This document shows, one piece after another, positions 29,875 through 52,594 of a stretch of 53,651 nucleotides of DNA. The number at the start of each line of letters is the position of its first letter. The stretch's first letter is position 1. A model generated the notes under the pieces. The model had not been told where the DNA came from. It saw only the letters and a list, made by a program, of their open reading frames with translations, and made no database searches. The stretch covers positions 1 through 53,651 of IMG/VR virus record IMGVR_UViG_3300050343_000116; one strand, 5' to 3'. The DNA is from a virus (Duplodnaviria; Caudoviricetes). The translations under genes were made by a program, and so were the position numbers.

Positions 29875-32800
29875 ATGCCAAGTTTACAAGAGGCACTAGG
29901 CTATTCTCCAATTTCATCTCGCCGGAAAAGACAATCAGACAAGCGGGATGATTTAAACCCGCTTCAGAACTTCACCGCTGGAGTCTCCGCTGGTATTGAT
30001 CAAACACTGGGGCTGGCTGGTGGCCTTAAAGCTTGGTATGGAGAGACCATTGGTGACGACGATATGGTCACTGAAGGTCTTGCCTACTATCAAGAAAAAA
30101 TGCAGGAGGCATCAGAGAGTCGTGGCGACGTAATGTCCTACGAGGACATTGAAGGCATTGGTGACTTCGCTGACTATGCCGCTTATATGGTTGGAAACCT
30201 TCTTCCAACTATAGGATCTGTTGTCGGAACAGGTGGCCTTGCTGGAGCCGCTGGCCAGATTGGTGGGCGCTCTGCGGTAAATTATCAGGTTAAAAAGAAA
30301 GCAAAAGAAGCTGTAGATAAGAGAGTCAAGAACACCGCTCAAAAGCTCGATAAAGATGCAATGGTTAAAAACTACGCGTCCAATCTAAAAGGTAGGTCGG
30401 CAGTCAAAGGACTGTCAGACAAAGCCGCCTCTCGTGCTGGCTCTCTTGGTCAGACTATTGGCGGCGTTGGTGGAAGTATTGGTCTGTCGACAGGAGATAC
30501 CTTTGCCGCCATCTATCAAGAGACCGGAGAGCTGCAAGCTGGAACGGCTTTAGGTGCTGGAATTATTTCTGGTAGCTTGGATGCCTTAACAGGAATGAGA
30601 GCCCTGAAGCGTGTTCTTCCGGCTGACAAGTTTAAAAAAGCTCGAGATGAGGTAGGCGAAAAGGTTATTAAGCAGCGCAAGATTGGCCAAAGAATGCTGG
30701 AGGAGGGATTAAAAAGCTCCGGCATCGAAGGTGTTACTGAGGCGATGCAGGAATTTGTTCAGGAAACAGCAGTTAAGTTAGTGGACAATGATTACTCTTC
30801 GCTGTCTGACGCAATGTACGAGGCCGTGGCACAAGAAGGCGCCAAGTCACTATATATAAATTCAGCATTGGCTGGAGCGTTAGGCGGCTTTGTTATTGGT
30901 GGCGCCAGTGGCATTAAGTCAGACCCGGCCCCGACAAAAGTGCAAGAACCTCCATCAGAAGATGGCCCGGAAATAGCTCCGGTATCTGACGAGCCAAGCG
31001 GCCCGATCATTCCGCAAGATCTACAGATCGAGCGCAATCTAAGAGCGCGAGAAGAAGCTCGCAGAATTATGATGGAAGCTCAGCAAGAGTTGGATCTTGG
31101 CGAGCCCGTGGTTGCTAACGAACCACGAGAGACGGTCACGGACTTGATCGGACAAGAAGTAAGTTATGGCGATGCAACTGGAATACTGACTGAAAGAGAT
31201 GAGGGCGTTTTTGTCGTTACTCCAGACGAAGATGTCTTTGTAGAGTCAGGACAAAACAGAGGCCTAGCCGCTGATAGCCTAGGAATAACAAGGTCTAACG
31301 CGCCACAAGATCTTGAGTTTGAGAACGAGGTGGAGTTTGACACTGCCACCTCTGAATTTTTTGTGCGCGGGAAAAAATATCAATACACCAAATCCAACAC
31401 CAACGATCAAGGTGAGGTTATCTCTGTTACTGCTATAGGGGATAACGGTCAAGAGGTTACCTTCCGTAACAGGGAGATCATAGACAGGATCGTTAGGGGT
31501 GTAGAGCAAGGCGAAAGACGGTTCGATTCTGAGCAGATGGTTCTTATGGACGAGCTGCCTATGTCTGTTCAGCGTCAGATAATGACCGATCAGATGGAGG
31601 CTGGTGAAACATCCATGCCGGATCAGCTGACGGAAGCTCAGGCTATGGATATAGCTCAGAGGCTTCCTGATCAGGATCAAGACCAGCTGACCATGGAGAT
31701 CGGTGAAGCAGTCAGAAGATCAGCTACATTCTTCTCAGCGAATGCTGAGTCTGCTCCCGCGGTCCAAGGTATGCAGAGCCGGGTCGACGAGACTTGGAGT
31801 TCAATGGATCGCACTAATGACAACGTCGATTCAAGCGTGGCTATGGAGCGTCATAACCGTTTGGTAGGTTTAAACATACCTATCAAGGGGACCAACGACA
31901 CATACGTTGTTGAGGAAATGAACCCGGAAGTACTTAGTGGAGCTGAGTCAGGCCTCTCATACAGTAGGAATCAGGGCGGCGTTCAGTACGAAGCCCAGCC
32001 TTTAAGCTCGCGAGAAGAGTTAGAGCCATTTAAGTTAGCTCTTATGGACATTGCTAGCTCAGGTTTCCCTCAAAGCATCATTGATTCGATCGCGGGATTT
32101 GGCATTCATAACGATAGCCGGGGGGAAATGCTTGAGGGTGTAGGGGGTTTTCATGACTTTGTACAGCAGTACATTAGCGTTGGGGAAAACACCGCAAAGA
32201 ATCCAAAACTACTCCGCAACACGCTTGCTCATGAGCTTAGTCATCGTCTTGACCGGGCAGAGGGCGTTACTGAAAGAGAAGAGTTTCGCGCCGTTGTTTC
32301 GGAAGGAACAGAAGGCACTACATCAATTGGAAGCATTAAAGCTCCTATCGAAATCGATATGGGCGATGTCTTGTTTGAGATATACGAAGCGTACAGAACT
32401 GACACACCCATAGGTAACTACTTCAATTACCCTTTCGCTTCTCTCTGGTCGGAGTTTGACAAGATTAGTAAGGCGTTTGATGCCGGCGAAATATCAAAGC
32501 CAAAGCGTGACAAGCAACACAGAGCAGTTTTGAAAGAGCTTAAGAGTGAGGCTTTTGCTCAAAGCTCTGCTCTCTACTTTGCTGAGCCTGAAATGCTGGC
32601 CAAACACGCTCCTCAGATGTATCAATTTATGCGAGACTTAACGTCTCCTGCACAGGACGTAGAGAATGAAAGTTCAATTAGAGAAGAAGGCGATCAGCCC
32701 CAATCTGGACAAGTATCTGGAGAAATTCAGCCACCTGCCCCCGTCGCACCTGTTCAGGTCGAAGACGGTTCAGGAGCTGGACGAGATGGCGGAGTTAGCA

Positions 32801-35800
32801 GTGTTCAAGAACAAGCCGATCAAAGAATGGGAGGCGTGGAAGGACAAGACACTGATCAACTTCCTCTAAACCTCAAAGAAGTATCGACCCTATTCCCGAC
32901 CGCTGTCAGTCGAGAGGTAGACCCAGTTGAAAATGTCATCGTTAGCAACTACGAGGGCTACCAAAACAACAGCAAGTTCGAGCAGAACTCTGAGCTGATA
33001 GCGGGCTATAACAACCTGACTAGAAACGAGCGTCGTCGCGCACCTAAAGCGAGGACAGAGTCTCTTATCGGCCATGTCGTTGATAACCTGCTTCACATTT
33101 ACGATCAGGTTCCTCAAGAAATCAGAGACGTTTCAAAGCTTTGGTATGTTGGGGCAAACAAAATAGCCAATCAATTTTCCAACGAGTACGGGATATCCCT
33201 ATCTCAAGCTTCCGGCGTCATAGCCAACCTGTCTCCACAAAAAGACTGGTACATGAATGCAAGTCTGGCCGAACGTGCCATTGACGTTTACACAAACCAT
33301 CGCACAGATCCTTGGACCGACGCGATGCAGGCTAAAGCAGAAAAGCTATTCATGGAAAACAAAGACCTGAGCAAAAGTGCGGTCGAGAAAAACAAGGTGA
33401 TGCTTGAGAACGTAAAGAACAAGAGCCTTCAGCAGTTAATAGATGAAGGAGCCTCTAATCCTGAGCTTGGCATGTGGACTCGAACTTGGGATCAAACCTT
33501 CAACAACAGTAAGTATCGACTGGTTTCTCCTGATGGAACTTTGCTTGGTTTTGTTAAGACCAAAAAAGGTGAAGATGCCTCAATGGCTTGGGGCAGTAAC
33601 ATAGAAATTGGCAAGGCGTTGTCAGTCTTAGTTGATGGTAGCGATGCCAATATTTCTAAATCACTTGGTCAAGCAAACAAGGTACGAAACTTCTACAACA
33701 ATATCTTTGGTCCGATGAGTGACAAGGGCTTTGTAACCATCGACACTCATGCGGTAGCGGCAGGCTTAATGAAGCCTCTTTCAGGAACATCGAAAGAGGT
33801 CAATCACAACTTTGGTACTGGTAAGGGCGTAGGAAACTCCAGCGTTACCGGATATCGTGGAACGTATGCGGTGTTTGAAGAGGCGTATCGTCGTGCCGGA
33901 AGAGAACGCGGTATTCTTCCTCGTGAGATGCAGTCCATAACATGGGAAGCAGTTCGCGGTCTGTTTACAGACACCTACAAAAACAATGCTCAGAACACGC
34001 TTTTCGCAGAAGGCGTGTGGAACCAATACAGTAGTGGTAAACTCACATTAGACGAGGCTAGACAAAAGGTAAGTAATCATGCAGGAGGATTCAACAGACC
34101 CGACTGGTCTGAATCAGGACGCTCTAAAGATGTTCAGCCGGCTGGGACTTCAACCTTCGAGAGAGGCGTATCTGGAACTGATATATCCAGAAAGGAACTT
34201 GAAGACGGACCCACTGACGGGGGAAGAGGAGTCGATGCTCCCACCGATGTTCAGCGAAAACGAGTAGACTCTCGCTTTGAACCGCCACCCCCATCAGATA
34301 ATCAAGATCTAAACAGAGCTATAAGAGAAGAGGACAAGACCCTTCTCGATTCTGTTAAGACTCAGCTCCGTCGTTATTTGCTTCCGCAGGGTCTGCTCCC
34401 TGATTCCGTGTTCAAGCTAAAGATCGAGCGAGACTCAGAGCTGGGCGCCGTTGAAATTGACATCGGTCAGCTTGTTACAGCCTATGATCGAGCGGTTGAG
34501 AAGCATCACACACAGCTTACTGACGAGCAGAAAAAGCTACATCACGAAGCGCTTGGTGAGAAGTTTAGTGAGATTGAATCTTTAGGTCTTGAACCCGAGA
34601 TAAAAGATGCCATCGTCACGATGCGTAGATATATCGATAAGATGTCGGCAGACTACGCAATCGTTGTGGCTAAAGATGCTCAGCGCATTGCTCTTGACGG
34701 AGACCCCGACAAAGCAGAAGCCAAAATAGATCTAATAAATACGCTCGTGGAGAACATAGGAAGCTATGTCCATAGATCATATCGTGCGTTTGATGACCCT
34801 AACTGGCCAAAGAATGTCCCGGATGCCGTCTTGGATCGGGCTAGAAGTTACCTTGAGGAATCAGGGGCGACAAACGTAGAGAACGTAATCAATACCATTC
34901 TTAAGGACGGTACTGCATACGACTCTATGGAGGCTATGATTCGAGAGTCTAATCTAGGCGCAAAAGATCTGTCGATCTTAAAGGCAAGAAAAGACATTGC
35001 TCCACAAATCAGAGAACTATTAGGCGAGTATCAAGAGCCCCGGATTAACTTTGGTAAAACCGTTACCAAGATGTCTCGGCTTCTGTTTAACGACAGATTC
35101 CTGACCAAGGTTATGCAGGACGGTATGGGCGTCTACCTTTTTGAGGCTGATGATGCCCCGCCACAGGCATTCACTACTCTGGCAGCAGAGAGTTCTGACG
35201 CCATGGCTCCGCTAAACGGCCTGAAGACTACGCCTGAGATATCTCAAGCATTCCAAGATGCGCTTGGAAAAGAGCAGATGGCCGACTGGTACCGCATGAT
35301 TGTTCAGGCAAACGGCTTGGTAAAGTACGGCAAGACTGTCTTGTCTCCAACTACCGTTGCAAGAAACTACATGTCCGCATACTTCTTCACGCTGGCTAAC
35401 GGTCACTTCAACATCAGCAAAGCATCAGAGGCTTGGGCTACCAAGCAGGCTTTCTTTACTCGTGAAGGCGATCGAGTCGCTTACATGAGAAGGCTTAAAG
35501 AGCTTGGTGTTGTTTATGACTCTCCGTACACCGGAGAGATGATGAAATTACTTGAGGAATCGCGTCTGGAGTTTACTTACCAGAACCGGTTCGAAGGTAA
35601 TAACATTGCAGACAACACGAAGAAGCTTGCTGATCGGGCGACTAAGTTTTATCAGTACGGCGATGACTTCTGGAAGATCATTGGTTTTGAGAATGAGATC
35701 GACATCCTCATGGAAGCCAAGTCCTTAACTCGAGAAGAGGCTGAGCCACTAGCAGCCGAAAGGATCAGAAACACTTACCCAACCTATTCGATGGTAGGCA

Positions 35801-36921
35801 AAGGCGGACAGTGGCTAAGACGATTCCCTCTTGCTGGTACGTTTGTTTCTTTCCCGGCAGAAATCATTAGAACGTCATTCAACATGCTTCGATACCTTAA
35901 GCAGGATATGAATGACCCAGACATGTCGAGTGTTGTGCCAAAGAGAGTAGCCGGGTTGGCAATGGCCTCTGGTGGAGCGTTCGGATTGTCTGAGTTCTTA
36001 AAGTCATCTCTTGATATCGATGATGACGAAGAGGAAGCAATCAAGCTGTTAGCCCCACCTTGGTCTAAAAACTCAGACCTTGCATACGTTTCACGTAAAG
36101 ACGGGAACATCCAGTACATAGATCTTTCATCTCTTGATCCGTATTCATACTGGAAGCGTCCGATCAACGCCTTACTTCGTGACCAGCCCATGGATGATGC
36201 AATTGTTCAGGCTGCTGCTGAGCTACTGACGCCATTCTTTGGTAAGGATATTGGTGCTGGAGCGGTTGAAGAAGTCTGGTTCAATAAGAAAGAAACCGGC
36301 TCTCAAGTTTATAACCCGACAGAGCCTGCGGTTGACCAGCTTGCAGATATTACAGGTCACTTGTTCAAGCAACTCTCACCGGGCCTAGTTAACAACGCAA
36401 ATAGAATGATGAAAGCTATCGACGATGATGTCAGTGCTACAGGCAGACGTTATAAAGTAGGAGATGAGATTGCAGCTTTGGCTGGATTCCGAGTAAGCAC
36501 CTTAGACCCGAAGGTCTCTTTGTATTACAAGTCCTTTGAGTTTAACGAGAGCAAGCGCAACGCGACCAAGACTCTGACAGACGCATTCCGCAGTGTGAAT
36601 GACGTTTCTAATTCTGATCTTGAGGGTGCCTTCCGAAGCTCTTCTCGGGCAAGACGTAGAGCCTTTGATGACATGATCAAAATGGTTGGTGCTGCCAGAA
36701 GCTCAGGGCTCAATGAGGCAATGATACTTCGAGTTCTTAAGAATGGCGGTGTCAGCACTAAGGACGCAAAAGCTATTGCGAAGGGTGACTTTTCTTCCTA
36801 TCAGATCTCAGACAGCTCTCTAAAGCGTTACATAAGACGCGCCGAGTTCTTAACTGGTGAGGCCAAAGGGTCAGAGTACGAGCGCAGATTTAGGTTCCTA
36901 CAGTCGCTGGAGGAAGAGTAA
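29875..36921 (+). CDS. Giant internal virion/polyvalent protein (zincin metallopeptidase plus DNA-glycosylase-like domain)
   Basis: 2348 aa; EGVTEAMQE, LAHELSH...EAFAQ, WY...IANLSPQKDW...KVRNFYNNI...VTIDTHA...MQSITW, FVSFPAE. Confidence 0.8.
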   Translation: MPSLQEALGYSPISSRRKRQSDKRDDLNPLQNFTAGVSAGIDQTLGLAGGLKAWYGETIGDDDMVTEGLAYYQEKMQEASESRGDVMSYEDIEGIGDFADYAAYMVGNLLPTIGSVVGTGGLAGAAGQIGGRSAVNYQVKKKAKEAVDKRVKNTAQKLDKDAMVKNYASNLKGRSAVKGLSDKAASRAGSLGQTIGGVGGSIGLSTGDTFAAIYQETGELQAGTALGAGIISGSLDALTGMRALKRVLPADKFKKARDEVGEKVIKQRKIGQRMLEEGLKSSGIEGVTEAMQEFVQETAVKLVDNDYSSLSDAMYEAVAQEGAKSLYINSALAGALGGFVIGGASGIKSDPAPTKVQEPPSEDGPEIAPVSDEPSGPIIPQDLQIERNLRAREEARRIMMEAQQELDLGEPVVANEPRETVTDLIGQEVSYGDATGILTERDEGVFVVTPDEDVFVESGQNRGLAADSLGITRSNAPQDLEFENEVEFDTATSEFFVRGKKYQYTKSNTNDQGEVISVTAIGDNGQEVTFRNREIIDRIVRGVEQGERRFDSEQMVLMDELPMSVQRQIMTDQMEAGETSMPDQLTEAQAMDIAQRLPDQDQDQLTMEIGEAVRRSATFFSANAESAPAVQGMQSRVDETWSSMDRTNDNVDSSVAMERHNRLVGLNIPIKGTNDTYVVEEMNPEVLSGAESGLSYSRNQGGVQYEAQPLSSREELEPFKLALMDIASSGFPQSIIDSIAGFGIHNDSRGEMLEGVGGFHDFVQQYISVGENTAKNPKLLRNTLAHELSHRLDRAEGVTEREEFRAVVSEGTEGTTSIGSIKAPIEIDMGDVLFEIYEAYRTDTPIGNYFNYPFASLWSEFDKISKAFDAGEISKPKRDKQHRAVLKELKSEAFAQSSALYFAEPEMLAKHAPQMYQFMRDLTSPAQDVENESSIREEGDQPQSGQVSGEIQPPAPVAPVQVEDGSGAGRDGGVSSVQEQADQRMGGVEGQDTDQLPLNLKEVSTLFPTAVSREVDPVENVIVSNYEGYQNNSKFEQNSELIAGYNNLTRNERRRAPKARTESLIGHVVDNLLHIYDQVPQEIRDVSKLWYVGANKIANQFSNEYGISLSQASGVIANLSPQKDWYMNASLAERAIDVYTNHRTDPWTDAMQAKAEKLFMENKDLSKSAVEKNKVMLENVKNKSLQQLIDEGASNPELGMWTRTWDQTFNNSKYRLVSPDGTLLGFVKTKKGEDASMAWGSNIEIGKALSVLVDGSDANISKSLGQANKVRNFYNNIFGPMSDKGFVTIDTHAVAAGLMKPLSGTSKEVNHNFGTGKGVGNSSVTGYRGTYAVFEEAYRRAGRERGILPREMQSITWEAVRGLFTDTYKNNAQNTLFAEGVWNQYSSGKLTLDEARQKVSNHAGGFNRPDWSESGRSKDVQPAGTSTFERGVSGTDISRKELEDGPTDGGRGVDAPTDVQRKRVDSRFEPPPPSDNQDLNRAIREEDKTLLDSVKTQLRRYLLPQGLLPDSVFKLKIERDSELGAVEIDIGQLVTAYDRAVEKHHTQLTDEQKKLHHEALGEKFSEIESLGLEPEIKDAIVTMRRYIDKMSADYAIVVAKDAQRIALDGDPDKAEAKIDLINTLVENIGSYVHRSYRAFDDPNWPKNVPDAVLDRARSYLEESGATNVENVINTILKDGTAYDSMEAMIRESNLGAKDLSILKARKDIAPQIRELLGEYQEPRINFGKTVTKMSRLLFNDRFLTKVMQDGMGVYLFEADDAPPQAFTTLAAESSDAMAPLNGLKTTPEISQAFQDALGKEQMADWYRMIVQANGLVKYGKTVLSPTTVARNYMSAYFFTLANGHFNISKASEAWATKQAFFTREGDRVAYMRRLKELGVVYDSPYTGEMMKLLEESRLEFTYQNRFEGNNIADNTKKLADRATKFYQYGDDFWKIIGFENEIDILMEAKSLTREEAEPLAAERIRNTYPTYSMVGKGGQWLRRFPLAGTFVSFPAEIIRTSFNMLRYLKQDMNDPDMSSVVPKRVAGLAMASGGAFGLSEFLKSSLDIDDDEEEAIKLLAPPWSKNSDLAYVSRKDGNIQYIDLSSLDPYSYWKRPINALLRDQPMDDAIVQAAAELLTPFFGKDIGAGAVEEVWFNKKETGSQVYNPTEPAVDQLADITGHLFKQLSPGLVNNANRMMKAIDDDVSATGRRYKVGDEIAALAGFRVSTLDPKVSLYYKSFEFNESKRNATKTLTDAFRSVNDVSNSDLEGAFRSSSRARRRAFDDMIKMVGAARSSGLNEAMILRVLKNGGVSTKDAKAIAKGDFSSYQISDSSLKRYIRRAEFLTGEAKGSEYERRFRFLQSLEEE
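32666..32869 (+). CDS. Nested +1-frame small protein behind the metallopeptidase domain
   Basis: 67 aa, globular-looking; CAGGA RBS; coincides with a low-complexity linker of the host frame. Confidence 0.45.
   Translation: MKVQLEKKAISPNLDKYLEKFSHLPPSHLFRSKTVQELDEMAELAVFKNKPIKEWEAWKDKTLINFL
34079..34267 (+). CDS. Nested +1-frame acidic protein behind the glycosylase-like domain
   Basis: 62 aa, LGLQPSREAYLELIYP...LTGEEESMLP; AAGGT RBS; coincides with a linker. Confidence 0.55.
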   Translation: MQEDSTDPTGLNQDALKMFSRLGLQPSREAYLELIYPERNLKTDPLTGEEESMLPPMFSENE

Positions 36922-36963
36922 GGTTCAACTCATTAGAGAAATCGTTGCGGCACGAGGCTTCTC

Positions 36964-36976
36964 TAAGCTATTGATT
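36964..36976 (-). promoter_or_regulatory. IHF-binding site in attP
   Basis: AATCAATAGCTTA matches WATCAANNNNTTR. Confidence 0.65.
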
Positions 36977-36996
36977 TATAAGGAAACCCGTAGGTT

Positions 36997-37045
36997 TACC
37001 TTGCCAAGGTACAGGTCGCCAGTTCGAATCTGGTTTCCCGCTCCA
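36997..37045 (+). other. attP: attP core: 3' half of tRNA-Gly(GCC)
   Basis: TACC-TTGCCAA-GGTA anticodon arm, GCCAG-TTCGAAT-CTGGT T arm, TCCCGCTCCA end; no D arm; next to integrase. Confidence 0.9.
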
Positions 37046-37053
37046 TTCACTCT

Positions 37054-37080
37054 AAGCCCCTGATTTATCAGGGGTTTTTT
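37054..37080 (+). terminator. Terminator after the tRNA fragment
   Basis: AAGCCCCTGAT-TT-ATCAGGGGTT then T-run. Confidence 0.75.
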
Positions 37081-37157
37081 GTTTCTGAATGGCTTGAACC
37101 CATCCAGTGTACAGCTTTGGCTTTTTTAGTTTTGAACGACGTACCCAAAATCAAGGT

Positions 37158-38045
37158 TCAGTCCGCTCTCAACTTGCCCTCAATTCGACTTGCAGCGTCC
37201 AACTTATGAAAGTTGTTCATGTGAGTATAGCGCTGTAACGAATTAAGCGAACGCCATCCACCAATCTCCATCAGCTCACGAGTGTCAGTCTGAGCTTGGA
37301 AGTGCCATGTCGCAAACGTGTGTCGCATTGTATGAAAGCTTGTGCCCTTAGGTAGTCCGGCTAAGTCCACAGCCTTCCGCCAAGTCTTATTACAGACCGC
37401 GCTACGACTGAACGGCTTGCCGTTATTCTGAACAAAGACGCCATCAATCTTGCCTCGCAAAAATGGCCTGCGCTTTACCAATTCCTCTTGAGCACGCTCA
37501 CGTCTTTTTAAGATGTCGCGTGCATCACCATTCAGAGGAATGAGTGCCGGCTTACCATTCTTTGTTTCGGTCGACTCAATCGACATGTACCTACCGTCCT
37601 TGCTTATCTGAGACCAGCGTAGTGTCCGTACGTTGTTGTTGCGTTGTCCGCAACTCAAAGCAAACTCCACCATGTCTGCTCTCAGCGGGTCTAGCCATCT
37701 CAGTAAAGATCTAACTTGACCCGGGTCTAAGTGCAACTCTCTCATCGCTTCCGGCAATGTCTCGATTTTTGGCACACCCTCAATGACTTCAAGCTTGTCC
37801 CGTGCGTAGCACAGTGTCAGCCGTAAGTACTTGAGGTACGTGTTCACAGTCGAGTTACTAAGGCCGTGCTCGTAAAGCAGCTCCTCTTGCAGATCGTTAA
37901 TGTCTTTAGCCCGGATAGTAGAAATGTTTCTATTACCCCAGCGCTTGACCATCTGCTTGATCGCTAGTTTTGCCGCACGACTCTTATCATTACCTCTGCG
38001 TGTTTTTATTTTTAAATACCGCTCTGCTACATCTTTGAACTTCAT
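37158..38045 (-). CDS. int: Tyrosine integrase
   Basis: GQR...K...FHTMRHTFATW...GGW...RY catalytic residues; start MKFKDV with GGAG RBS. Confidence 0.93.
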   Translation of the reverse strand: MKFKDVAERYLKIKTRRGNDKSRAAKLAIKQMVKRWGNRNISTIRAKDINDLQEELLYEHGLSNSTVNTYLKYLRLTLCYARDKLEVIEGVPKIETLPEAMRELHLDPGQVRSLLRWLDPLRADMVEFALSCGQRNNNVRTLRWSQISKDGRYMSIESTETKNGKPALIPLNGDARDILKRRERAQEELVKRRPFLRGKIDGVFVQNNGKPFSRSAVCNKTWRKAVDLAGLPKGTSFHTMRHTFATWHFQAQTDTRELMEIGGWRSLNSLQRYTHMNNFHKLDAASRIEGKLRAD

Positions 38046-38092
38046 ATGACTCTCCGTGTGTATGAAGCCCCGCACCGCAGCTATACCTTATC

Positions 38093-38118
38093 AAAAAAAG
38101 GGGGGCGTTTCCGCCCCC
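38093..38118 (-). terminator. Terminator between recombination operon and integrase
   Basis: GGGGGCG-GAAA-CGCCCCC then C and 7 T on minus strand. Confidence 0.85.
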
Positions 38119-38210
38119 AATCACAAGGAGCCACCTTTCGGGGCGGCACGTTTTTTAGTCACTGGTGTGCCAAGCCAGTCAGGAACTCGGGTACCTATCA
38201 GACCCGAGGA

Positions 38211-38450
38211 CTAATTAACAACCTCGCCTTCTGCCACTTCCTCTGCCTCTTGGGGGAGGGGTTCCGGCAGAAGCTTTTTAGCATCAGCCAAGGTTGCATC
38301 TGCGCCAGCTCGAGCTGCCTCGAGTAGGGGTGCAAGGATTTGTATTGCTTGGTTAGCTTGTTGAACGAGTGCCAGCATCTGGCGTGGTCGCTCTCCAATC
38401 TCTTGAAAGTTGTACGACTTACCGTCGATACTAATTGTTTGATCACTCAT
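38211..38450 (-). CDS. Hypothetical protein
   Basis: 79 aa, ISIDGKSYNF plus helix; ATGA-coupled to the upstream gene. Confidence 0.7.
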   Translation of the reverse strand: MSDQTISIDGKSYNFQEIGERPRQMLALVQQANQAIQILAPLLEAARAGADATLADAKKLLPEPLPQEAEEVAEGEVVN

Positions 38451-38845
38451 CTTTTATGCTTACTCCTAGCGTTGTTTCGTAAAAGTTCATATGACCTTGG
38501 CGCTTGCACCAAGATCCTTGCTTGTGGGACAACCCTATTCTTGCTGAGGTCACCTCGCCCACATATCTCACAGAAGTCATCAGGCGTGTACCAGTACTCC
38601 TGAATTCCTACGAGGGCTATTGAGACTGTGGGGCTGACCTCTAGGATCTCACCACCAACAGTCATAAGTTGTTCAACACAGCCGTCTTTGGAATACACAT
38701 TTAAGAGACAATCTTGCTTGCCCTTATGGTCCCTGACCCGTCGAACCCATATTTTGTGCTCGAACGTAGTCTCTGGACTTTGGGGGTCCATGTTCTTTCC
38801 CCCGTATAAGACACTATCGACAGCTCGTGTTAGCCGTAAACCCAT
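38447..38845 (-). CDS. Divergent tandem CsrA/RsmA-like RNA-binding protein
   Basis: LRLTRAVDSVLYGG, VGGEILEVSPTVSIALVGI and QARILVQAPRSYELLR align by eye to CsrA LILTRRVGETLMIG, VGETLMIGDEVTVTVLGV and QVRIGVNAPKEVSVHR. Confidence 0.65.
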   Translation of the reverse strand: MGLRLTRAVDSVLYGGKNMDPQSPETTFEHKIWVRRVRDHKGKQDCLLNVYSKDGCVEQLMTVGGEILEVSPTVSIALVGIQEYWYTPDDFCEICGRGDLSKNRVVPQARILVQAPRSYELLRNNARSKHKR

Positions 38846-38855
38846 ATCAATACCT

Positions 38856-39260
38856 TTAAAACGGAATGTCTTCCTCGGGAAAGTCAGCTTGCTGTGGTGC
38901 AGGCTGTGGTGCAGGCTGTGGGGCTGGCTTGTTTGCAGGTTTAGTAGGTAACCAGTACTCGACGTTCAGCTGAGAGACTGCGCCATCGCGCTTCTGTTCA
39001 GCAACATCTAGATTGTATTTAATGGCCTCACCGCCATTTATATCGAGTGCTCCCTGCATCTCATCGATCACGTCCTGATCGATCTTCAGCCAACCGTTGA
39101 AGCTTGGAATCTTCAGCGCTTGCTGCTCTTTACTAAGATCTGTAAACCAGCTGTACTGCTTGAGATGGTTGTACTTCTCAAGTTTTTTCTCTCGATCTAG
39201 CGGGTAAAGGCGCCCCTTACCAGCCTTAATTGCCTCGAAGGCAGTAGGTTTATTTTGCAT
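38856..39260 (-). CDS. Single-stranded DNA-binding protein-like
   Basis: (PAPQ)n linker and acidic DFPEEDIPF tail; in exo/Sak module. Confidence 0.65.
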   Translation of the reverse strand: MQNKPTAFEAIKAGKGRLYPLDREKKLEKYNHLKQYSWFTDLSKEQQALKIPSFNGWLKIDQDVIDEMQGALDINGGEAIKYNLDVAEQKRDGAVSQLNVEYWLPTKPANKPAPQPAPQPAPQQADFPEEDIPF

Positions 39261-40291
39261 TAGTCATCTCCGATTGATTTGATTGATGATTGCAGTGAAT
39301 TACTCTGCCGACGCCATTCGTCGATAGAGCTATCTTTCTCTAGCAGGGCTTGTTCCCCGCCAAGAAATTCAAATGCCCCGCGGAAATCCACCGGAGGAGT
39401 TTTCTTGATGACCTGTATAGACACGAATCCGTTGGTGATTGACCGCTCGTACTTTTTAACTAGCTCTTTCTTGAGTGCGTCACGGCTAGCCTTGAGGTGG
39501 TCTAGGTCTTGAAGTGCTTGATAGTTCATGACCTCAATCTCATTGATCTTGCCTTGAATGTCGGCAAGCTCAGACATCTGGTCATCTTGGATTTCATCGT
39601 AGTCAGGCTTCAGCGGATCAAGGTGCTTTTGAGCCCGTTCAGGATCGGCAGCCTCAGCTTGAATGAAGTCATACCAAGCCTTGAACAAATCAAGTCTAGT
39701 GACGGACCCCTTTTTTGGTGTTGGCAACAGCCTTCCTTCAAGCTCCTCGTCCAACCAATCCCAGTTGCGCTCTACTCTATCGATGTGCCATTGGCCTTCA
39801 GCCTGTGGATCGGTCGCTAAGTAGCACATGAAGTCACACCAATCTAGGTCACAGACCTCCATGACCATGTGGCACTGCCATAAATACATGATTCGCTTTT
39901 CGTCAAAGACAGAGTAAGGCGCCTTGGTCCACTTAGGATAGGGGCACTTGAACTCGGCACAGCCTTCAATACCAATCAGACCATCAGGCGATGCGGCTAG
40001 GAACGAGTGCTTTGAATGTACGACCAAGCCAGTCTCATCAACTTTGTACCGTTGAATTTGCTCAAGCTTGACGCGGGCATAGTCCTCCATCATGGAGCCA
40101 TGCTCTACTGCCGCGTTGGTTTGAAACTCAGACTCGGCACCAAGGATAGCCCTTACCTCTTGGCGGACAACTTCCTCGACCTTCATGTAAGGGTGCTTGT
40201 TCTCATAAGCAGCGCAGATACTTGCTTTGATCAGGCCAGCTCTGGCTTTTAGCCACCCCTCAGAACCTTGGGGGTGCATCATGCTGACCAC
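39260..40291 (-). CDS. YqaJ/lambda-type exonuclease
   Basis: QGSEGWLKARAG..KAS, HGSMME, LAASPDGL, EFKCP, WQCH.MEV. Confidence 0.9.
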   Translation of the reverse strand: MVSMMHPQGSEGWLKARAGLIKASICAAYENKHPYMKVEEVVRQEVRAILGAESEFQTNAAVEHGSMMEDYARVKLEQIQRYKVDETGLVVHSKHSFLAASPDGLIGIEGCAEFKCPYPKWTKAPYSVFDEKRIMYLWQCHMVMEVCDLDWCDFMCYLATDPQAEGQWHIDRVERNWDWLDEELEGRLLPTPKKGSVTRLDLFKAWYDFIQAEAADPERAQKHLDPLKPDYDEIQDDQMSELADIQGKINEIEVMNYQALQDLDHLKASRDALKKELVKKYERSITNGFVSIQVIKKTPPVDFRGAFEFLGGEQALLEKDSSIDEWRRQSNSLQSSIKSIGDD

Positions 40292-40950
40292 CCCTTCTTG
40301 CTACAGACCTCTTCCCACCGATTGAGACGGTAGTCTTCCAGACCGCGAGACTTCAGAGCCTTAACATATCGATCAAACATTTTTTGACCGGCAGTTTTTG
40401 TTCGCGCCTTTTGGATTTCTTCGAGGCTGGTCATCCAAAGCCTATCAATGCTGTTCCTGACTTTTGAGTCCGCTTCTGTGTCGTCCGTGGGTAAAACATC
40501 CCCAGAGGACTGGTCAGTGACTTCTTCTACAACTTCCGGCTCTTCTGCCGTTGGCTTCTTGAGCCACAGTTGATGGCCAAGGCCGAACTCAGCCATCGCC
40601 TTAACGCGACACCTTTGCTTGGCGGTGTTTATTTGAAAGCTGTTAGGGTTGCGTACAACATCACCGCCGTCTCTCACCATGTAAGAGGTGATCTGGGTGT
40701 GCCCTAAAACCGTCATGCGACACCTAACCTCGCAGGTACCGTCATTGAAGTAATGAACTTCCCGGCTTTCGGGGTCTTCGGTAAATTCCCATGTGTATTC
40801 TGGGAAGTTGTCCATCATGAGTACGTGCGCGTTCATCCAAGACACAGCGGGAAACTTTTCCCCGCTTATCGTTTCGGACTCAGTGCAGTGTGGTTTTATG
40901 TTTACAGCAGAAAGGGTTGCCCATATGTGGGCTTTAGAAGTCTTGTCCAT
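40279..40950 (-). CDS. Sak/Rad52-like single-strand annealing protein
   Basis: SWMNAH...FPEYTW...INTAKQRCRVKAMAEFGLG. Confidence 0.78.
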   Translation of the reverse strand: MDKTSKAHIWATLSAVNIKPHCTESETISGEKFPAVSWMNAHVLMMDNFPEYTWEFTEDPESREVHYFNDGTCEVRCRMTVLGHTQITSYMVRDGGDVVRNPNSFQINTAKQRCRVKAMAEFGLGHQLWLKKPTAEEPEVVEEVTDQSSGDVLPTDDTEADSKVRNSIDRLWMTSLEEIQKARTKTAGQKMFDRYVKALKSRGLEDYRLNRWEEVCSKKGWSA

Positions 40951-40989
40951 GTCGCATATCCGTGTAGTAAATCAATAGATTCACCACGA

Positions 40990-41017
40990 AGTTTACGCTT
41001 GCAAATGAGTTTGTCAA
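40990..41017 (-). promoter_or_regulatory. Sigma70 promoter of recombination/CsrA-like operon
   Basis: TTGACA-16 nt-TAAACT. Confidence 0.65.
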
Positions 41018-41160
41018 TTACTAGATGGATTTGGACTGTCTTTTCCTATTAATTTTGCGACCACATCGTCACATTCTTTTACATGTATCGATGGATTATC
41101 TTCAATAAATTTCCGGATTAGTTTGAATAAAGCCTCGTCCGTGAGTTTCTCTTTTCCCAT
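41014..41160 (-). CDS. 48-aa hypothetical protein downstream of repressor (not in ORF track)
   Basis: MGKEKLTDEALFKLIRKFIEDNPSIHVKECDDVVAKLIGKDSPNPSSN; AAGGA upstream. Confidence 0.5.
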   Translation of the reverse strand: MGKEKLTDEALFKLIRKFIEDNPSIHVKECDDVVAKLIGKDSPNPSSN

Positions 41161-41180
41161 TCTTCCGATCCTTGGTCTGG

Positions 41181-41588
41181 TTATTTAGCCAAAAAAGTCT
41201 TTAGATTTTCCATAAACGACTCAAGCGATTGCTCGTCAGACTCGCCCATTAGGACGAGAGCGGCCATCTGCTTAGCGCTCAAATCGATATTGTATTTATT
41301 TTCAAAGTTTTTACATCTGTGAATGAGTTCAGATAGTCTAGATTCTGAGATGAAAGCGCCTCTTGATTTTCCGGTCGACCATTCGTAGAAGTCTAAACCG
41401 AATTCATCTGCGAATTTTATTCCCGTTTGGATATTTTTTGGAAGGCTACCCTTCAGCCAAGCATCCGCGGTTGCGTTGCTACAGCCGGTCTTTCTAGCAA
41501 TTTCAGAGGCTCGCCCCCAAGCTGCGACTCCGCGTTTTGTTAGTTGTTCGTTTAGGTATTCCGATCGCTTCTGATTGTCATAGTGCAT
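41181..41588 (-). CDS. Xre-type HTH repressor candidate
   Basis: RASEIARKTGCSNATADAWLKGSLP HTH; divergent from replication genes; no S24 peptidase domain visible. Confidence 0.72.
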   Translation of the reverse strand: MHYDNQKRSEYLNEQLTKRGVAAWGRASEIARKTGCSNATADAWLKGSLPKNIQTGIKFADEFGLDFYEWSTGKSRGAFISESRLSELIHRCKNFENKYNIDLSAKQMAALVLMGESDEQSLESFMENLKTFLAK

Positions 41589-41678
41589 TTAGCTCATCCG
41601 TGTGAAGTTTTTTTAGTCTACTCGAAAAACTCTGTTAAATGCGAATTATTCTCATAAACTCGGTTATGATAATTAAAT

Positions 41679-41707
41679 TTGCACTATCAAAAGAATTTTC
41701 TTATCTT
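41679..41707 (+). promoter_or_regulatory. Rightward sigma70 promoter
   Basis: TTGCAC-17 nt-TATCTT in AT-rich divergent spacer. Confidence 0.55.
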
Positions 41708-41746
41708 TACATGCGCTTTACGGCGAACCACCACACGGAGTAGTTA

Positions 41747-42415
41747 ATGATTTTCAAACCTGCGGCTCACAAATCTCGGCACTACACCAAGCTGCCAAAC
41801 GATTTGCTGCGTGACCCAGACCTAACCCCGGAAGCCATAGGCATCCTAGCTTACCTTCTTACGCACGTTGACAACTGGCGTGTCACTCAGCGTCAGCTTA
41901 GTAACCACTTCAATTGCAGCCCCGGCCGGATTAAGAATATCGCCGATACCCTAGAGGCCTGCGGATACATACGAAGAGTTAGGTATATCGATCAGGGCAA
42001 GCATGTATTTGATTGGGAGGTATATGACGAAAAGCAAGATGTCGAAAATCGACATGTCGAAAATCAAGATGTCGAAAATCAGCACCTAAGAATAAACATA
42101 GTTACAGAAGAAACATCTACTAAGAAGAAACATTGGAAAGAAGAACTATCTGACTCCTGCCCTGAAGGCATTCCTAAACTGACGTGGCGTGAGTGGTGGG
42201 AGTACAAGGCTGGCACTCGCAAGCCGGGTAAGTCGACGATCACTAGGCAGACCCATGACTTCGAGACAATGGCCAAACACGGATTCGATTTATCAGAGCT
42301 AATCCCCTTCGCTATCAGTCGAGGATGGCAACGTATTGGGAGTCCAGACTGGGACTCGCTCAATCGATTTAAAAATAAACAAAGAACAGATGATTATCTT
42401 GCTGAGGTTAAGTAA
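41747..42415 (+). CDS. Replication initiator (winged HTH)
   Basis: YTKLPNDLLRDPDL..EAIGILAYLL...LEACGYI; C-terminal ISRGWQ; internal iterons. Confidence 0.8.
   Translation: MIFKPAAHKSRHYTKLPNDLLRDPDLTPEAIGILAYLLTHVDNWRVTQRQLSNHFNCSPGRIKNIADTLEACGYIRRVRYIDQGKHVFDWEVYDEKQDVENRHVENQDVENQHLRINIVTEETSTKKKHWKEELSDSCPEGIPKLTWREWWEYKAGTRKPGKSTITRQTHDFETMAKHGFDLSELIPFAISRGWQRIGSPDWDSLNRFKNKQRTDDYLAEVK
42039..42080 (+). repeat. Putative origin iterons
   Basis: ATGTCGAAAATC three times at 15-bp period (42039, 42054, 42069), followed by A-rich tract. Confidence 0.75.
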
Positions 42416-44256
42416 TGGATATACGTGTGCTCAAATCAGAGCTTGGGAGGTATGCCCATCAAATATGCCAAGAGTTGTTTCCCGAAGGGATCATAGAGTC
42501 GGGGTGTTACAAGGTAGGCAGCATCGAGGGGGACAAGGGACGGAGTTTTTCGTGCTACCTGCATGGCGATAAGGCTGGGAAGTGGATTGACTTTGCAACT
42601 GGCGATGGTGGCGACATGCTTGATCTCATCCAACATGGTCGAGGCATGTCACTTACTGAGGCCATGGAGTGGTCAGCTAAGCGCTACGGTATACGGGATT
42701 ACAGCCCCGCCCCAAAAATTTCGCAGTCGGCAAAGAAAAAATACTCCACCCCTGCCCCACCATCTAGAACCAGTAACAGCCTGATACATGAGTACATGCA
42801 GAAGCGTGGGTTCAGGGAGATGGGTGAGGTGTGCTTCCGGTACAAGATCTATGAGACGGAGACCCGTGGTGGGCTTGATGTCGTGTTCCCGTTCCATGAC
42901 GTCTCGGGTGACCTTGTATTCCTGAAGACAAAGCCGATGAATCATGATGGCAATCCGTCTACTCAGAAAGACCTCCGGCCGATACTGTTTGGTTGGCAGG
43001 CTATGCCGGCAAGTGCTCGCAAGGTGTGGATCACTGAGGGCGAGTGGGACGCGATTGCATGTGGTGAGCTTGGATTTCCAGCGTTGAGCGTGCCAATGGG
43101 CGGGGGGAAAGGCGCCAAGCAAACCAATTGGATCGCCAACGAATACGAGAACCTTGCCCGGTTTGAAGAGATCATCATTGCCACTGACATGGATGAGCAA
43201 GGAGATCTAGCGGCCCAAGAGATCATGAAGCGTTTAGGCGACCGGTGCTACCGGGTGAAGCTCCCAACAAAAGACATCAACGAGCTACTTCAAAAGCAGG
43301 GTTACGAGCAGTCTCGGCTGGTTCTCGAGGCGGCGTATGAAGAGGCCCGATGGCAAGATCCTGACACACTGCGCTCTGTCATGGAGTTTGAAAAAGACAT
43401 CGATGATTACTTCGATAAGTCGATCAATGACACGCAGGGGTTTGGCTCGGGGTGGAACAAAATAGACGAGGAAGACATACGGTTTCGGCCGGGCGAGATG
43501 TGGGGTATTACCGGCATCAACGGTCATGGCAAGAGCATGTGGCTAGGTCAGCTATGCCTGAATGCTGTTGAACAAGGGCAGAAGGTATTAATCGCTTCAT
43601 TCGAGATGAACCCAAAACAGACTCTTGGTCGCATGATGAAGCAGGCGGGAGGCAGCTCCGAGCCACCGAAGGACTACCGCCAAAAGCTGATGGAATGGAT
43701 GGGTGCAAACCTTTGGCTGTACGTCGACAACATAACGCCTAAGCCTGAAGACCTGATGAAGTGTTTCGAGTATGCGTACCGCCGCTACGGTGTTTCGGTG
43801 TTCGTCATTGACTCACTGACAAACATGGTTAGGCAGGACGACTTCGAGGGTCAGCAGAAATTTGTCGAGAAGGTCGTGAACTTCAAGATGACTACCGGCG
43901 CCACTGTGTTTTTGGTCACGCACTCCCGGAAGGGTGAGGACGAGCACAAAGCCCCGAACAAGTACGACGTCAAAGGTAGCGGATCGATTACCGATCTTGC
44001 CGATGGGTTTATGTCGTTGTGGAAAAACAAGCGAAAGGTCGAGCACCTCGAGCAGTGCCGAGTGTTAGGTGAAGAGCCAGACGAAAAGTTTACCAAGCAG
44101 TGGGACGTCTACCTCGAGATTCTGAAGAACCGTAACGGTGGATACGAGGGCAAGGTCGGTTTCGAGTTTGACAACCGCACCTGTCAGTACCTCGAGCGTC
44201 GATCAGGCCGGCCAAAGTATTACATCAAGTACTCCAAGGAGAATTCAAATGGATAA
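42415..44256 (+). CDS. Toprim primase-SF4 helicase
   Basis: WIDFATGDGGD, ITEGEWDAIA, ATDMDEQG, KDINE, GINGHGKS, VIDSL, LVTHSRK, KGSGSI, KNR. Confidence 0.92.
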   Translation: MDIRVLKSELGRYAHQICQELFPEGIIESGCYKVGSIEGDKGRSFSCYLHGDKAGKWIDFATGDGGDMLDLIQHGRGMSLTEAMEWSAKRYGIRDYSPAPKISQSAKKKYSTPAPPSRTSNSLIHEYMQKRGFREMGEVCFRYKIYETETRGGLDVVFPFHDVSGDLVFLKTKPMNHDGNPSTQKDLRPILFGWQAMPASARKVWITEGEWDAIACGELGFPALSVPMGGGKGAKQTNWIANEYENLARFEEIIIATDMDEQGDLAAQEIMKRLGDRCYRVKLPTKDINELLQKQGYEQSRLVLEAAYEEARWQDPDTLRSVMEFEKDIDDYFDKSINDTQGFGSGWNKIDEEDIRFRPGEMWGITGINGHGKSMWLGQLCLNAVEQGQKVLIASFEMNPKQTLGRMMKQAGGSSEPPKDYRQKLMEWMGANLWLYVDNITPKPEDLMKCFEYAYRRYGVSVFVIDSLTNMVRQDDFEGQQKFVEKVVNFKMTTGATVFLVTHSRKGEDEHKAPNKYDVKGSGSITDLADGFMSLWKNKRKVEHLEQCRVLGEEPDEKFTKQWDVYLEILKNRNGGYEGKVGFEFDNRTCQYLERRSGRPKYYIKYSKENSNG

Positions 44257-44584
44257 CGAAAGGTTTGCAAAAGCCATCCGCGATGCAGGTGCAACTGTGC
44301 AAAAAGCAGAGAGGGATCTGGGCCATGCCGAAGCTACTGAGAAAAGGGTTGCGGCTCAGCTAATGATGATGGCAGAGCATGCTCACGGGCAAAAGACCGT
44401 AGCGGCTCAGGCCAAGTGGGCCGACGAGCAGGACGAAATGTTCAATGCCCGCGTCAATCGGGGCACCGCCAAGGGCGCCCTCGCCTCCGCAAAAGCTAAC
44501 CTTCTTGCAGCCGAAGTCTCGTTTAAAACGTGGCAAACAGAGATGGCCACCAACCGAGCAGAAATGCGGACGTTGATGGGATGA
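44249..44584 (+). CDS. Helical hypothetical protein
   Basis: AAGGAG RBS; ends WQTEMATNRAE. Confidence 0.65.
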   Translation: MDNERFAKAIRDAGATVQKAERDLGHAEATEKRVAAQLMMMAEHAHGQKTVAAQAKWADEQDEMFNARVNRGTAKGALASAKANLLAAEVSFKTWQTEMATNRAEMRTLMG

Positions 44585-44931
44585 AGTCTCACTCTGCCAC
44601 CAAGGAAGAGAAAGAATGGATGGATGCCATCGTTCAGCTGGGGTGCATTGTTTGTCGCTTGCATCTTGGCGTGAAGTCGCCGGCCGAGGTCCATCATATT
44701 TCAGGAAAGGTAAAACCGGGGGCGCACTTAAACACAATACCACTATGCCCCAACCACCACCGGGCCGGCTTAGCTACGCCAATGTGCGTGTCTCGCCACC
44801 CTTACAAAGCTCAGTTCATTGAGCGTTACGGATCAGAGGAATATCTACATGAGCAAACATCATCACTTATCGTTGAACGACGCGACACCGGAAGACTGGG
44901 ACCGAGTCTCGAAGCCGAAGCACTACTCTAG
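44581..44931 (+). CDS. Ref-like HNH nuclease
   Basis: LGCIVC...AEVHH...TIPLCPNHH. Confidence 0.78.
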   Translation: MKSHSATKEEKEWMDAIVQLGCIVCRLHLGVKSPAEVHHISGKVKPGAHLNTIPLCPNHHRAGLATPMCVSRHPYKAQFIERYGSEEYLHEQTSSLIVERRDTGRLGPSLEAEALL

Positions 44932-45130
44932 TCAGAACGACAAGTTCCCTGACCTCGAGTGCATCGACTCCACCAAAGCGAGCATGTCTCCCGAAGGCTT
45001 TAAAGGCTACTTGAAGGGTTGTGTCCTCAAGTACATGTGGCGTTACGAGGACAAGGACGATCCGAAGCAAGATCTAGAAAAAGCGCAGGAGTATCTGCAA
45101 CGGTTACTGGAAGAAGTTTCCAATGGTTAA
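44849..45130 (+). CDS. DUF3310 (SaV-like) protein
   Basis: VSKPKHY...ECID...GYLKGCVLKYMWRY..K...DLEKA..YL. Confidence 0.85.
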   Translation: MSKHHHLSLNDATPEDWDRVSKPKHYSSQNDKFPDLECIDSTKASMSPEGFKGYLKGCVLKYMWRYEDKDDPKQDLEKAQEYLQRLLEEVSNG

Positions 45131-52220: not shown

Positions 52221-52249
52221 AGTTATCTCTCCGTGTGGTTTGGTCTGGG

Positions 52250-52534: not shown

Positions 52535-52594
52535 GTCTAGCTCTCCGTGTGGTTTGTCACAATTGACACATGCCGGTCAGCGACCGGGCACGTA

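Follow-up and report, generated by a model that had tools for sequence, protein, structure and literature searches.

Can a phage carry the two chains of a CsrA dimer in a single polypeptide? The question is raised by a small gene in the virus record IMGVR_UViG_3300050343_000116 of IMG/VR (Duplodnaviria; Caudoviricetes). Positions 1 to 53,651 of this record, the whole stretch of DNA analysed, are called the window. The gene is an open reading frame (ORF) at 38447..38845 on the minus strand, with an ATG start and the stop codon included, and its product has 132 amino acids (aa). CsrA is among the best-studied bacterial post-transcriptional regulators, and its two-faced obligate dimer is central to RNA bridging and sponge capture. 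A preliminary description, made from the letters of the window, read the product as a phage-encoded fusion of two CsrA-like repeats with a CxxC insertion. The strings that it quoted (LRLTRAVDSVLYGG, HKIWVRRV, KGKQDCLLNV, LMTVGGEILEVSPTVSIALVGI, CEIC and QARILVQAPRSYELLR) are all in the translation of the ORF. CheckV gives the 53,651-base virus record a completeness of 100%, so its claim that the gene is phage-encoded holds.

With moderate confidence, we consider that the gene encodes a CsrA-derived, putatively RNA-binding protein, with two CsrA chains in one polypeptide and one RNA face.

Two-piece homology between the phage family and CsrA

The CsrA signal is detectable only at the family level, with profiles. 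In an exhaustive family search among representatives, 39 proteins had E <= 1e-3, including 24 with E <= 1e-10; nearly all have 113-139 aa. Word-indexed searches recovered 6 and 20 proteins. The members found in this way had no name beyond "hypothetical protein" and no precomputed Pfam domain. We aligned 31 family sequences (alignment A1) and compared them with a profile of 27 chromosomal CsrA genes. For the latter, 29 loci of gammaproteobacterial genomes were tried, and one further locus, of an unpublished genome, was excluded.

The comparison with hhalign gave two matches. Family residues 65-132 align with CsrA 9-53 (probability 94.4-95.6%, E 8.6e-8 to 1.2e-8, score 41.7). Residues 1-19 align with CsrA 1-18 with a score of 25.3; the E-value is 3.7e-5 for this half alone and 2.7e-4 for the whole family, with probabilities of 71% and 41%. 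Reversed family profiles scored at most 13.4 (8.5 for the N-terminal part). The maxima of 30 column shuffles per profile were 14.7, 18.3 (N-terminal part) and 20.1. Judged by these reversed and shuffled controls, the resemblance of the family to CsrA is beyond chance.

Other searches point to the same regions. When the members were scanned singly, 19 of 31 matched the CsrA family of Pfam (PF02599) at E <= 1. The best match, that of P0044 (E 1.7e-6, 28.3 bits), covers the equivalent of residues 65-132. It is the only one above the curated cut-off of 27 bits, which the window protein does not reach. The family profile also matched CsrA, RsmE, RsmN and RsmF chains of the PDB (E 0.15-0.38), each in two pieces, with family residues 3-19 on CsrA 2-18 and residues 108-128 on CsrA 29-49. 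By this two-piece profile homology, the 132-aa protein is to be read as CsrA-derived.

The chain can thus be divided into three segments, all on the minus strand. Residues 1-19 (MGLRLTRAVDSVLYGGKNM, 38789..38845) correspond to β1-β2 of CsrA, according to both hhalign and the PDB profile search. Residues 20-64 (38654..38788) form a middle segment with no CsrA signal, predicted as a helical turn and three strands. Residues 65-132 (38450..38653), among them A115-P116-R117 and R123, correspond to β2-β5 and the first part of the helix, as indicated by hhalign, conservation and the Pfam match of P0044. The preliminary description had drawn the second half in the same way. The β2 strand, CsrA 9-18, is matched twice, at residues 10-19 and 65-74. 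Therefore, the protein contains two partial CsrA copies, as opposed to a single chain interrupted by a foreign domain.

Candidates for homology with the middle segment came from phmmer, which retrieved long beta-repeat proteins (P0027, P0037, P0039, P0041 and P0043) with E-values down to 4.8e-12. We rejected them. Their Pfam families are FMN_bind, FG-GAP, SBBP and Ig_7, and the only BLASTP matches are weak, repeated and hairpin-like (E 2e-4 to 3e-3 per stretch). The low phmmer values arise because 5-7 weak hairpin-like matches add up. Multi-stretch E-values of this kind, from small beta-rich queries, should be read with caution. In alignment A1, the sequence P0009 diverges sharply over the CxxC and β4' region and keeps alignable termini; it looks frameshifted or mis-assembled.

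Conservation of one putative RNA-binding face

The RNA site of CsrA and RsmE is a patch made by β1 of one protomer and β4/β5 of the other (PMC5864733). In RsmN, Leu4 and Leu6 on β1, the β5 backbone and Arg62 (equivalent to Arg44 of RsmA) contact GGA (PMC3791407). The alignment places L3, L5 and R7 of the phage protein on Leu2, Leu4 and Arg6, and A115-P116-R117 on Ala36-Pro37-Lys38. On β5, L121 and R123 fall on Val42 and Arg44. The match of the final arginine to Arg44, first proposed by eye, is therefore found in hhalign as well.

Each 132-aa chain has one set of these RNA-contact residues, and the second set is absent. The counterpart site is degraded: the first copy has no β5, and β1' (G-C-V-E-Q-L-M-T) has no arginines. 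Considering that a CsrA site joins β1 of one chain to β4/β5 of the other, the phage protein would keep exactly one canonical site.

The conserved N-terminus in A1 reads M-x-L-R-L-T-R-x-V-x-S-x-L-Y-G-G, and the C-terminus reads L-x-G-I ... P-Q-A-R-x-x-x-x-A-P-R-x-Y-x-I-x-R-x-D-A. P116 and R123 are invariant, and L3, R7, G16 and A115 are at least 90% conserved. The mean frequency of the top residue is 0.69 in β1, 0.64 in β2, 0.85 in A-P-R and 0.59 in β5', compared with 0.35-0.54 elsewhere. The peaks on β1 and β4'-β5' thus outline a single putative RNA face.

The insertion would be located beside this face. It consists of residues 82-104 (38534..38602, minus strand), with the motif C92-x-x-C95-G-R-G; in hhalign, the CsrA profile has a gap of 23 columns at this place. 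The preliminary reading of the CEIC segment as an insertion is confirmed: it is a clean insert that replaces the "KGN" turn between β3 and β4 of CsrA, at the tip of a lengthened β3'-β4' hairpin. The CxxC is present in 24 of the 31 members and absent in 7, and many members have only two cysteines in total. A PDB profile search relates the insert to the cysteine half of C2H2 zinc fingers (PRDM9, E 1.4e-4), without the histidine pair. We regard the CxxC arm as a lineage-specific embellishment.

Predicted fold of the single chain

The AlphaFold2 model of the 132-aa protein, made with A1, is a confident monomer with a predicted local distance difference test (pLDDT) score of 88.2 and a predicted template modelling (pTM) score of 0.76. 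Confidence is lower in the CxxC segment (pLDDT 76-86). The model has nine strands (2-8, 12-16, 30-40, 43-52, 55-62, 68-71, 74-86, 104-114 and 120-123), with a helical turn at 24-27 and two-residue turns at 40-43 and 52-55. P0044, the most CsrA-like member, has no insert. Its model shows the same nine strands (pLDDT 88.7, pTM 0.81) and a short helix after the last one.

The sheets of RsmA are ordered β5A-β2B-β3B-β4B-β1A and β5B-β2A-β3A-β4A-β1B (PMC3791407). Since β4 of one chain adjoins β1 of the other, a hairpin from β4A to β1B is a natural point of fusion, and the two-residue turns of the model, at 52-55 in particular, agree with it. Nine strands is the number expected of a CsrA dimer fused from β4 to β1, minus one β5/helix. 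According to the models, the middle strands 30-40, 43-52 and 55-62 may be degenerate β3, β4 and β1'. The compact monomers suggest an intramolecular equivalent of the CsrA dimer.

If so, the protein would act as follows. The first half, recognisable as β1-β2 and then continued by two long strands, would lack β5 and the helix. The second half would provide β2-β5 and the helix start, with the 23-residue CxxC arm instead of the β3-β4 turn. Such a chain would fold alone, as nine strands comparable to a CsrA dimer minus one β5/helix. Its single site would be made of β1 of the first half (L3, L5, R7) and β4'-β5' of the second (A115-P116-R117, R123), the symmetric site being lost. Its binding to A(N)GGA at ribosome-binding sites would be monovalent; the protein could block the access of ribosomes but, unlike the CsrA dimer, could not bridge two sites.

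Synteny and distribution of the gene

Relatives are encoded at 51 loci, 49 on viral contigs and 2 on short contigs of metagenome-assembled genomes (MAGs). The neighbourhood is kept in 51/51, down to 46% identity in the CsrA-like protein. We detected the exonuclease in 51/51, the integrase in 47/51, the Sak gene and orf134 in 45/51 each, and orf79 in 28/51; most misses are at contig ends. From this conserved synteny, we conclude that the CsrA-like gene is stably maintained, under selection, in one temperate-phage lineage.

Seawater and marine viral metagenomes contain near-identical DNA, and 17 runs have at least half of the sampled words. The samples with such DNA belong to about 13 studies, possible source samples being set aside. 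The gene is carried by an abundant and widespread marine temperate-phage lineage. A megablast of the window region 36000-46000 against phages gave no match. No RNA sample was among those listed with the sequence of the gene. Short contigs covering 38377-38792, 38407-38725 and 38591-38785, from three "metatranscriptomic" libraries of two studies, were rejected as evidence of expression, being flagged "probably DNA".

ACACGGA boxes as candidate targets

The gene is part of an early leftward operon (37158..41588, minus strand). By PHROG matches, this operon comprises a repressor-like gene, a Sak-like gene, a RecE/YqeJ-type exonuclease, orf134, the CsrA-like gene, orf79 and an integrase. Replication genes are divergent, rightward from 41747. 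The left part of the genome, about 37 kb, is the structural module.

A GGA is present at -14 to -8 in 25 of 87 crude gene starts, and in 6 of these 25 it is preceded by ACAC. Every other tetramer before GGA occurs once. The ACAC-preceded starts are 0/11 in the structural module and 6/14 elsewhere (binomial 8e-11). Of the eight ACACGGA sites of the window, six precede an ATG of non-structural genes by 7-9 nucleotides (nt) and are on the coding strand. A search for ACACGGA-N5-11-ATG in five related phage records found it in 5/5, with 10 matches compared with 0 in the reversed control.

The repressor-like gene (41181-41588, minus strand, PHROG match) has its box at 41597..41603, 8 nt before the ATG; in the minimum free energy (MFE) fold of the RNA ACACGGAUGA, it is unpaired. 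The box is conserved in L002, L007, L010-12, L018, L020-21, L033 and L041, which belong to several clades with differing flanks. The Sak-like annealing protein gene (40279-40950, minus strand, PHROG match) has the box at 40959..40965, also 8 nt before the ATG and conserved in L002-L012. The leader RNA of the repressor-like and Sak genes reads ACACGGAU. The first rightward replication gene (41747-42415, plus strand) has its box at 41733..41739, 7 nt before the ATG, with the leader RNA ACACGGAG.

In the integrase ORF (37158-38075, minus strand, PHROG match), the box is at 38053..38059, 7 nt before an internal ATG at 38045. Because of this spacing, and because the PHROG match begins at residue 9, the true start is probably the ATG at 38045 and not the listed GTG at 38075. 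The last two boxes, both on the minus strand and 9 nt before the ATG, precede ORFs of unknown function. They are 52230..52236 for the ORF 51657-52220 and 52544..52550 for the ORF 52250-52534.

The box reads ACGGAU in the repressor-like and Sak leaders and ACGGAG in the others. In the canonical Shine-Dalgarno sequence, AGGAGG, an A precedes GGA. Here the base is C, which leaves only GGA or GGAG as a recognisable Shine-Dalgarno element. RsmE binds the hcnA ribosome-binding site, whose hexaloop is ACGGAU, and the core of the consensus is A(N)GGAX (PMC4005645). In the MFE folds, the box is unpaired in 4 of the 6 leaders, and partial pairing is predicted for the ORF that starts at 52220.

With less certainty, the likely targets of the protein would be those early and regulatory leaders of the phage itself in which ACACGGA precedes the ATG by 7-9 nt. 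As a product of the early leftward operon, the protein would feed back on how the repressor-like, recombination, replication and integrase genes are translated. We propose only tentatively the full scenario, in which duplication, fusion and site decay turned CsrA into a single-chain one-faced repressor of this lineage, switching early genes through ACACGGA independently of the host Csr system. A monovalent protein would escape cooperative capture by host sponge RNAs and so work whatever the Csr state of the host.

Two hairpins were observed at the boxes. One, at about 40965-40988 (minus strand), is directly 5' of the Sak box (MFE -12.9 kcal/mol, z -3.45, 0/200 shuffles as stable). The other, in the integrase leader (38037-38087), would pair the start codon and have the box in its loop; its MFE of -10.8 kcal/mol is not different from shuffles.

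Evidence against the proposed interpretation

Several results weigh against a one-faced, CsrA-derived repressor of these leaders. Taken alone, the 132-aa protein has no CsrA match in Pfam, NCBIfam or PDB sequences. The Pfam search was a check suggested in the preliminary description, and on the single protein it failed: PF02599 is absent even at E <= 10, and the sole match is an unrelated family at E 0.17. The best E-values were 0.086 in PHROGs and 1.2 against PDB sequences, and neither NCBIfam (including csrA) nor PADLOC gave a match. In GenBank phages, tblastn found 7 weak partial matches (best E 0.05), and the ESM Atlas gave nothing above 0.79 and has no model of the protein.

The two halves do not match each other in hhalign (E 0.14), and residues 20-64 have no sequence similarity to CsrA (hhalign of residues 17-73, E 0.14). 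For these two reasons, the names β3, β4 and β1' given to the middle strands are our interpretation. The preliminary claim of two fused repeats is thus supported by the double β2 match and the nine-strand monomer, and not by similarity between the halves. The N-terminus of the protein does correspond to β1-β2 of CsrA. The preliminary assignment of HKIWVRRV and QDCLLNV to β3 and β4 finds no sequence signal, only predicted strands.

Structure searches did not convincingly retrieve CsrA, RsmN or YqeH, either with Foldseek or with VIA. Against the PDB, Foldseek gave nothing at E <= 1e-3 for either model (best rows E 9e-3 and 3.3e-2); its top rows were lipocalins, Pur-alpha and DUF1608, all with low template modelling (TM) scores. 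The best Z of the wide VIA search was 8.0, for class II fusion proteins with a root-mean-square deviation above 5 Å, which is within the background stated for the tool. Foldseek had also been suggested as a check. Its failure to return CsrA is uninformative, because each solved CsrA chain represents one half of an intertwined dimer. The pairing of the strands, with β1 beside β5', is putative.

As for the boxes, ACACGGA is not above chance in the window as a whole (8 compared with 5.6 +/- 2.4 expected). GGA in hairpin loops is not enriched either (177 compared with 190 +/- 14; near starts, 7 compared with 5.8 +/- 2.6). None of the 6 boxes is presented as a hexaloop on a stem, the form of highest CsrA affinity. 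The integrase start at 38045 was chosen after the motif was seen, and in the clade of the window the leader of the CsrA-like gene itself has no GGA. Since the box contains a GGA(G) Shine-Dalgarno element, it could be a signal at the level of the ribosome, or a site for host CsrA instead. The link between the boxes and the CsrA-like protein is circumstantial.

In homology and architecture, the preliminary description was largely borne out; equivalence to the CsrA dimer in three dimensions and the binding of RNA are what we infer from the models and the conserved residues.

Alternative explanations

The same monovalent CsrA-derived binder might have its main targets in the host, either CsrA-regulated ribosome-binding sites or Csr/Rsm sponge RNAs, and so shift the Csr network. 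We hold this to be possible, with some doubt. The csrA genes known from phages and plasmids are thought to reprogram hosts (PMC7366521, PMC9928087), and the conserved site residues are generic CsrA ones. CsrA is also common in one candidate host clade. Of 26 genomes sampled from the family of one MAG with a relative (L050, labelled Porticoccaceae), 23 have canonical CsrA, as do 33 of 41 in its class, a tally that includes one unpublished genome (G041). However, the only cellular matches are the two short MAG contigs, whose taxonomy is discordant (Porticoccaceae and Flavobacteriales). In L050, none of the ORFs examined past the integrase is recognisable as a bacterial gene. We therefore rejected a host assignment from these two loci. 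Moreover, the lineage-conserved ACACGGA boxes point to phage targets, although the two sets of targets are not mutually exclusive.

Less probable is a CsrA-derived protein that still pairs, through a free sheet edge or through two CxxC arms sharing a metal, and so has two RNA faces and bridges RNA. Many members have exactly two cysteines, too few for an intramolecular zinc site with four ligands, and the insert resembles the cysteine knuckle of a zinc finger. From the model and PMC3791407, a four-stranded sheet with a free edge could also invite strand pairing. Nevertheless, the 7 of 31 members that have no CxxC keep the rest of the protein, so the family can do without cysteine-mediated pairing. 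The monomer models are also compact and confident alone (pTM 0.76 and 0.81). A homodimer prediction with two copies and zinc scored 0.02, compared with a mark of 0.42, and is not evidence either way.

It is unlikely that the fold derives from CsrA and has lost RNA binding altogether, to serve as a binder of proteins or ligands, for example a decoy that captures a CsrA antagonist or an accessory factor of recombination or integration. The gene does lie between recombination and integration genes. The RNA face of CsrA also binds protein, since CesT contacts it at β1'/β4/β5 (PMC5864733). Nevertheless, the best-kept residues of the phage family are those of RNA recognition, namely L-x-L-T-R of β1, A-P-(K/R) and the equivalent of Arg44 (roles in PMC3791407).

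Finally, a small all-beta phage protein unrelated to CsrA, with termini alike by chance, would agree with the lack of single-sequence and structural matches, but it is already disfavoured and very improbable, given two collinear profile matches well above the reversed and shuffled controls, Pfam matches in 19/31 members with one above the curated threshold, and invariant residues that coincide with the CsrA signature A-P-K...R44.

Comparison with known CsrA-like systems

The preferred interpretation, a CsrA-derived single chain with one RNA face, can be compared with several known proteins. With CsrA, RsmA and RsmE (PF02599), the phage protein shares β1 (M-x-L-x-L-T-R), β2-β5, the A-P-(K/R) turn and the Arg44 equivalent, which align. 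An all-beta sandwich is predicted for it, with the strand count of the dimer minus one, and its ligand would be A(N)GGA. The differences are in the architecture. The CsrA type has 55-75 aa arranged as β1-5-α, and two chains of about 60 aa form a domain-swapped homodimer, a translational repressor with two identical RNA faces. The phage protein is one chain of 132 aa with nine predicted strands. Its first copy is degenerate after β2, without β5 or helix; one face is conserved instead of two, and it has the 23-residue CxxC arm.

A close analogue is Re-CsrA (PDB 5z38), a one-faced CsrA made in the laboratory to dissect the geometry of the dimer (PMC5864733). It consists of CsrA 1-44, a GGGGSGGGGS linker and full-length CsrA, and it folds and binds RNA. 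In its crystal, the first moiety is ordered only from M1 to P37 (β1-β4). One site is intact, formed by β1 of the first moiety and β4/β5/helix of the second (PMC5864733). A truncated first moiety, a complete second one and a single intact site are thus common to both proteins. In contrast, the two halves of the man-made Re-CsrA are near-identical and joined by a flexible linker. In the natural phage protein, the junction is a two-residue turn in the model, the first half has diverged strongly, and there is the CxxC insert.

If the phage form is indeed natural, conserved and one-faced, evolution would have explored the same solution as Re-CsrA, and the protein would offer a ready-made tool to separate site occupancy from bridging. 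It would also add a translational layer, with a short cis-element, to the control of early genes in abundant uncultured marine temperate phages.

In RsmN/RsmF of P. aeruginosa (PDB 4kji, 4k59), also a CsrA relative, the chain is rearranged, the RNA face is retained and there is an insertion after β2. RsmN is a 71-aa chain whose compact monomers still dimerise, with two faces and a 16-residue helix inserted after β2 (PMC3791407). The phage protein has a 13-residue loop at this place, but only a helical turn of four residues (H24-27). It is about twice as long and predicted to be self-sufficient, and P0044 has a C-terminal helix, which RsmN does not. In length (~71 aa), inserted helix (~16 residues) and absence of a C-terminal helix, the phage protein differs from the RsmN/RsmF subfamily.

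The C-terminal domain of the GTPase YqeH is described as a natural single chain with two repeats, a beta-sandwich and an architecture like the CsrA dimer (PMC2954204). We found no sequence link between YqeH (PDB 3ec1, 3h2y) and the phage family. In Foldseek, 3h2y appears at rank 21 (E 0.081, TM 0.20/0.10), and it is absent from the listing of P0044 and from the top 50 of VIA. Its repeats are compact and side by side, not strand-swapped, and they accompany a GTPase domain, whereas the phage protein is free-standing.

Mobile elements with a CsrA-family regulator are known. Canonical csrA was reported in 30 of 2,517 phage genomes, and the products (RsmM-type, in Pseudomonas phages), retrieved by PSI-BLAST with E. 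coli CsrA, are described as small dimeric homologs (PMC7366521). On plasmids, there is RsmQ of pQBR103 (PMC9928087). Neither "tandem" nor "fused" occurs in the text of PMC7366521, whose supplementary list of 30 phage proteins lay outside this comparison. The literature searched gave no natural tandem or single-chain CsrA, only the engineered Re-CsrA, and a double-length form in that supplement is possible. What is apparently new here is a natural, conserved and apparently one-faced single-chain CsrA derivative. A paper on crocagin (PMC10070186) was rejected as a source of a CsrA-like fold, as it says only that crocagin inhibits CsrA.

Phage T4 RegA binds the initiation regions of several early phage mRNAs and thereby represses their translation. 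Its similarity to the phage protein is one of functional analogy only and depends on the proposed targets; the fold is unrelated and the recognition sequence different.

Other features of the phage genome

Upstream of the CsrA-like gene in the leftward operon are orf134 (38856-39260, minus strand) and the RecE-type exonuclease gene (39260-40291, minus strand, PHROG match). The product of orf134 has P-A-P-Q repeats and an acidic C-terminal tail, E-E-D-I-P-F. Its homologs in related phages (L001-L050, where detected) end in D-D-[D/E]-[I/L/V/M]-P-F. This tail resembles the C-terminal tip of the bacterial single-stranded DNA-binding protein (SSB). In NCBIfam, orf134 matches SSB weakly (E 0.06, residues 62-134 on 98-172 of 172), and it has no family match in Pfam or PHROG. 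Located beside the exonuclease and Sak genes, it may encode a divergent SSB or a mimic of the SSB tail.

Between orf79 and the integrase gene, there is a terminator-like hairpin (GGGGGCG, GAAA, CGCCCCC and a T run) at about 38093-38118 on the minus strand, kept in the closest relatives. Given this hairpin upstream, the expression of the integrase may need read-through or a promoter of its own.

No tRNA genes were found in the window. The plus-strand ORF 29875-36921 encodes 2,348 aa and matches a virion structural protein of PHROG (E 2.8e-76). At the start of a second leftward block, the ORFs 51657-52220 and 52250-52534 encode 187 and 94 aa, and one of them has a PHROG match only to a family of unknown function. 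Both share the extended leader AAACCACACGGAGAG, and CCACACGGAG is common to them and the replication gene.

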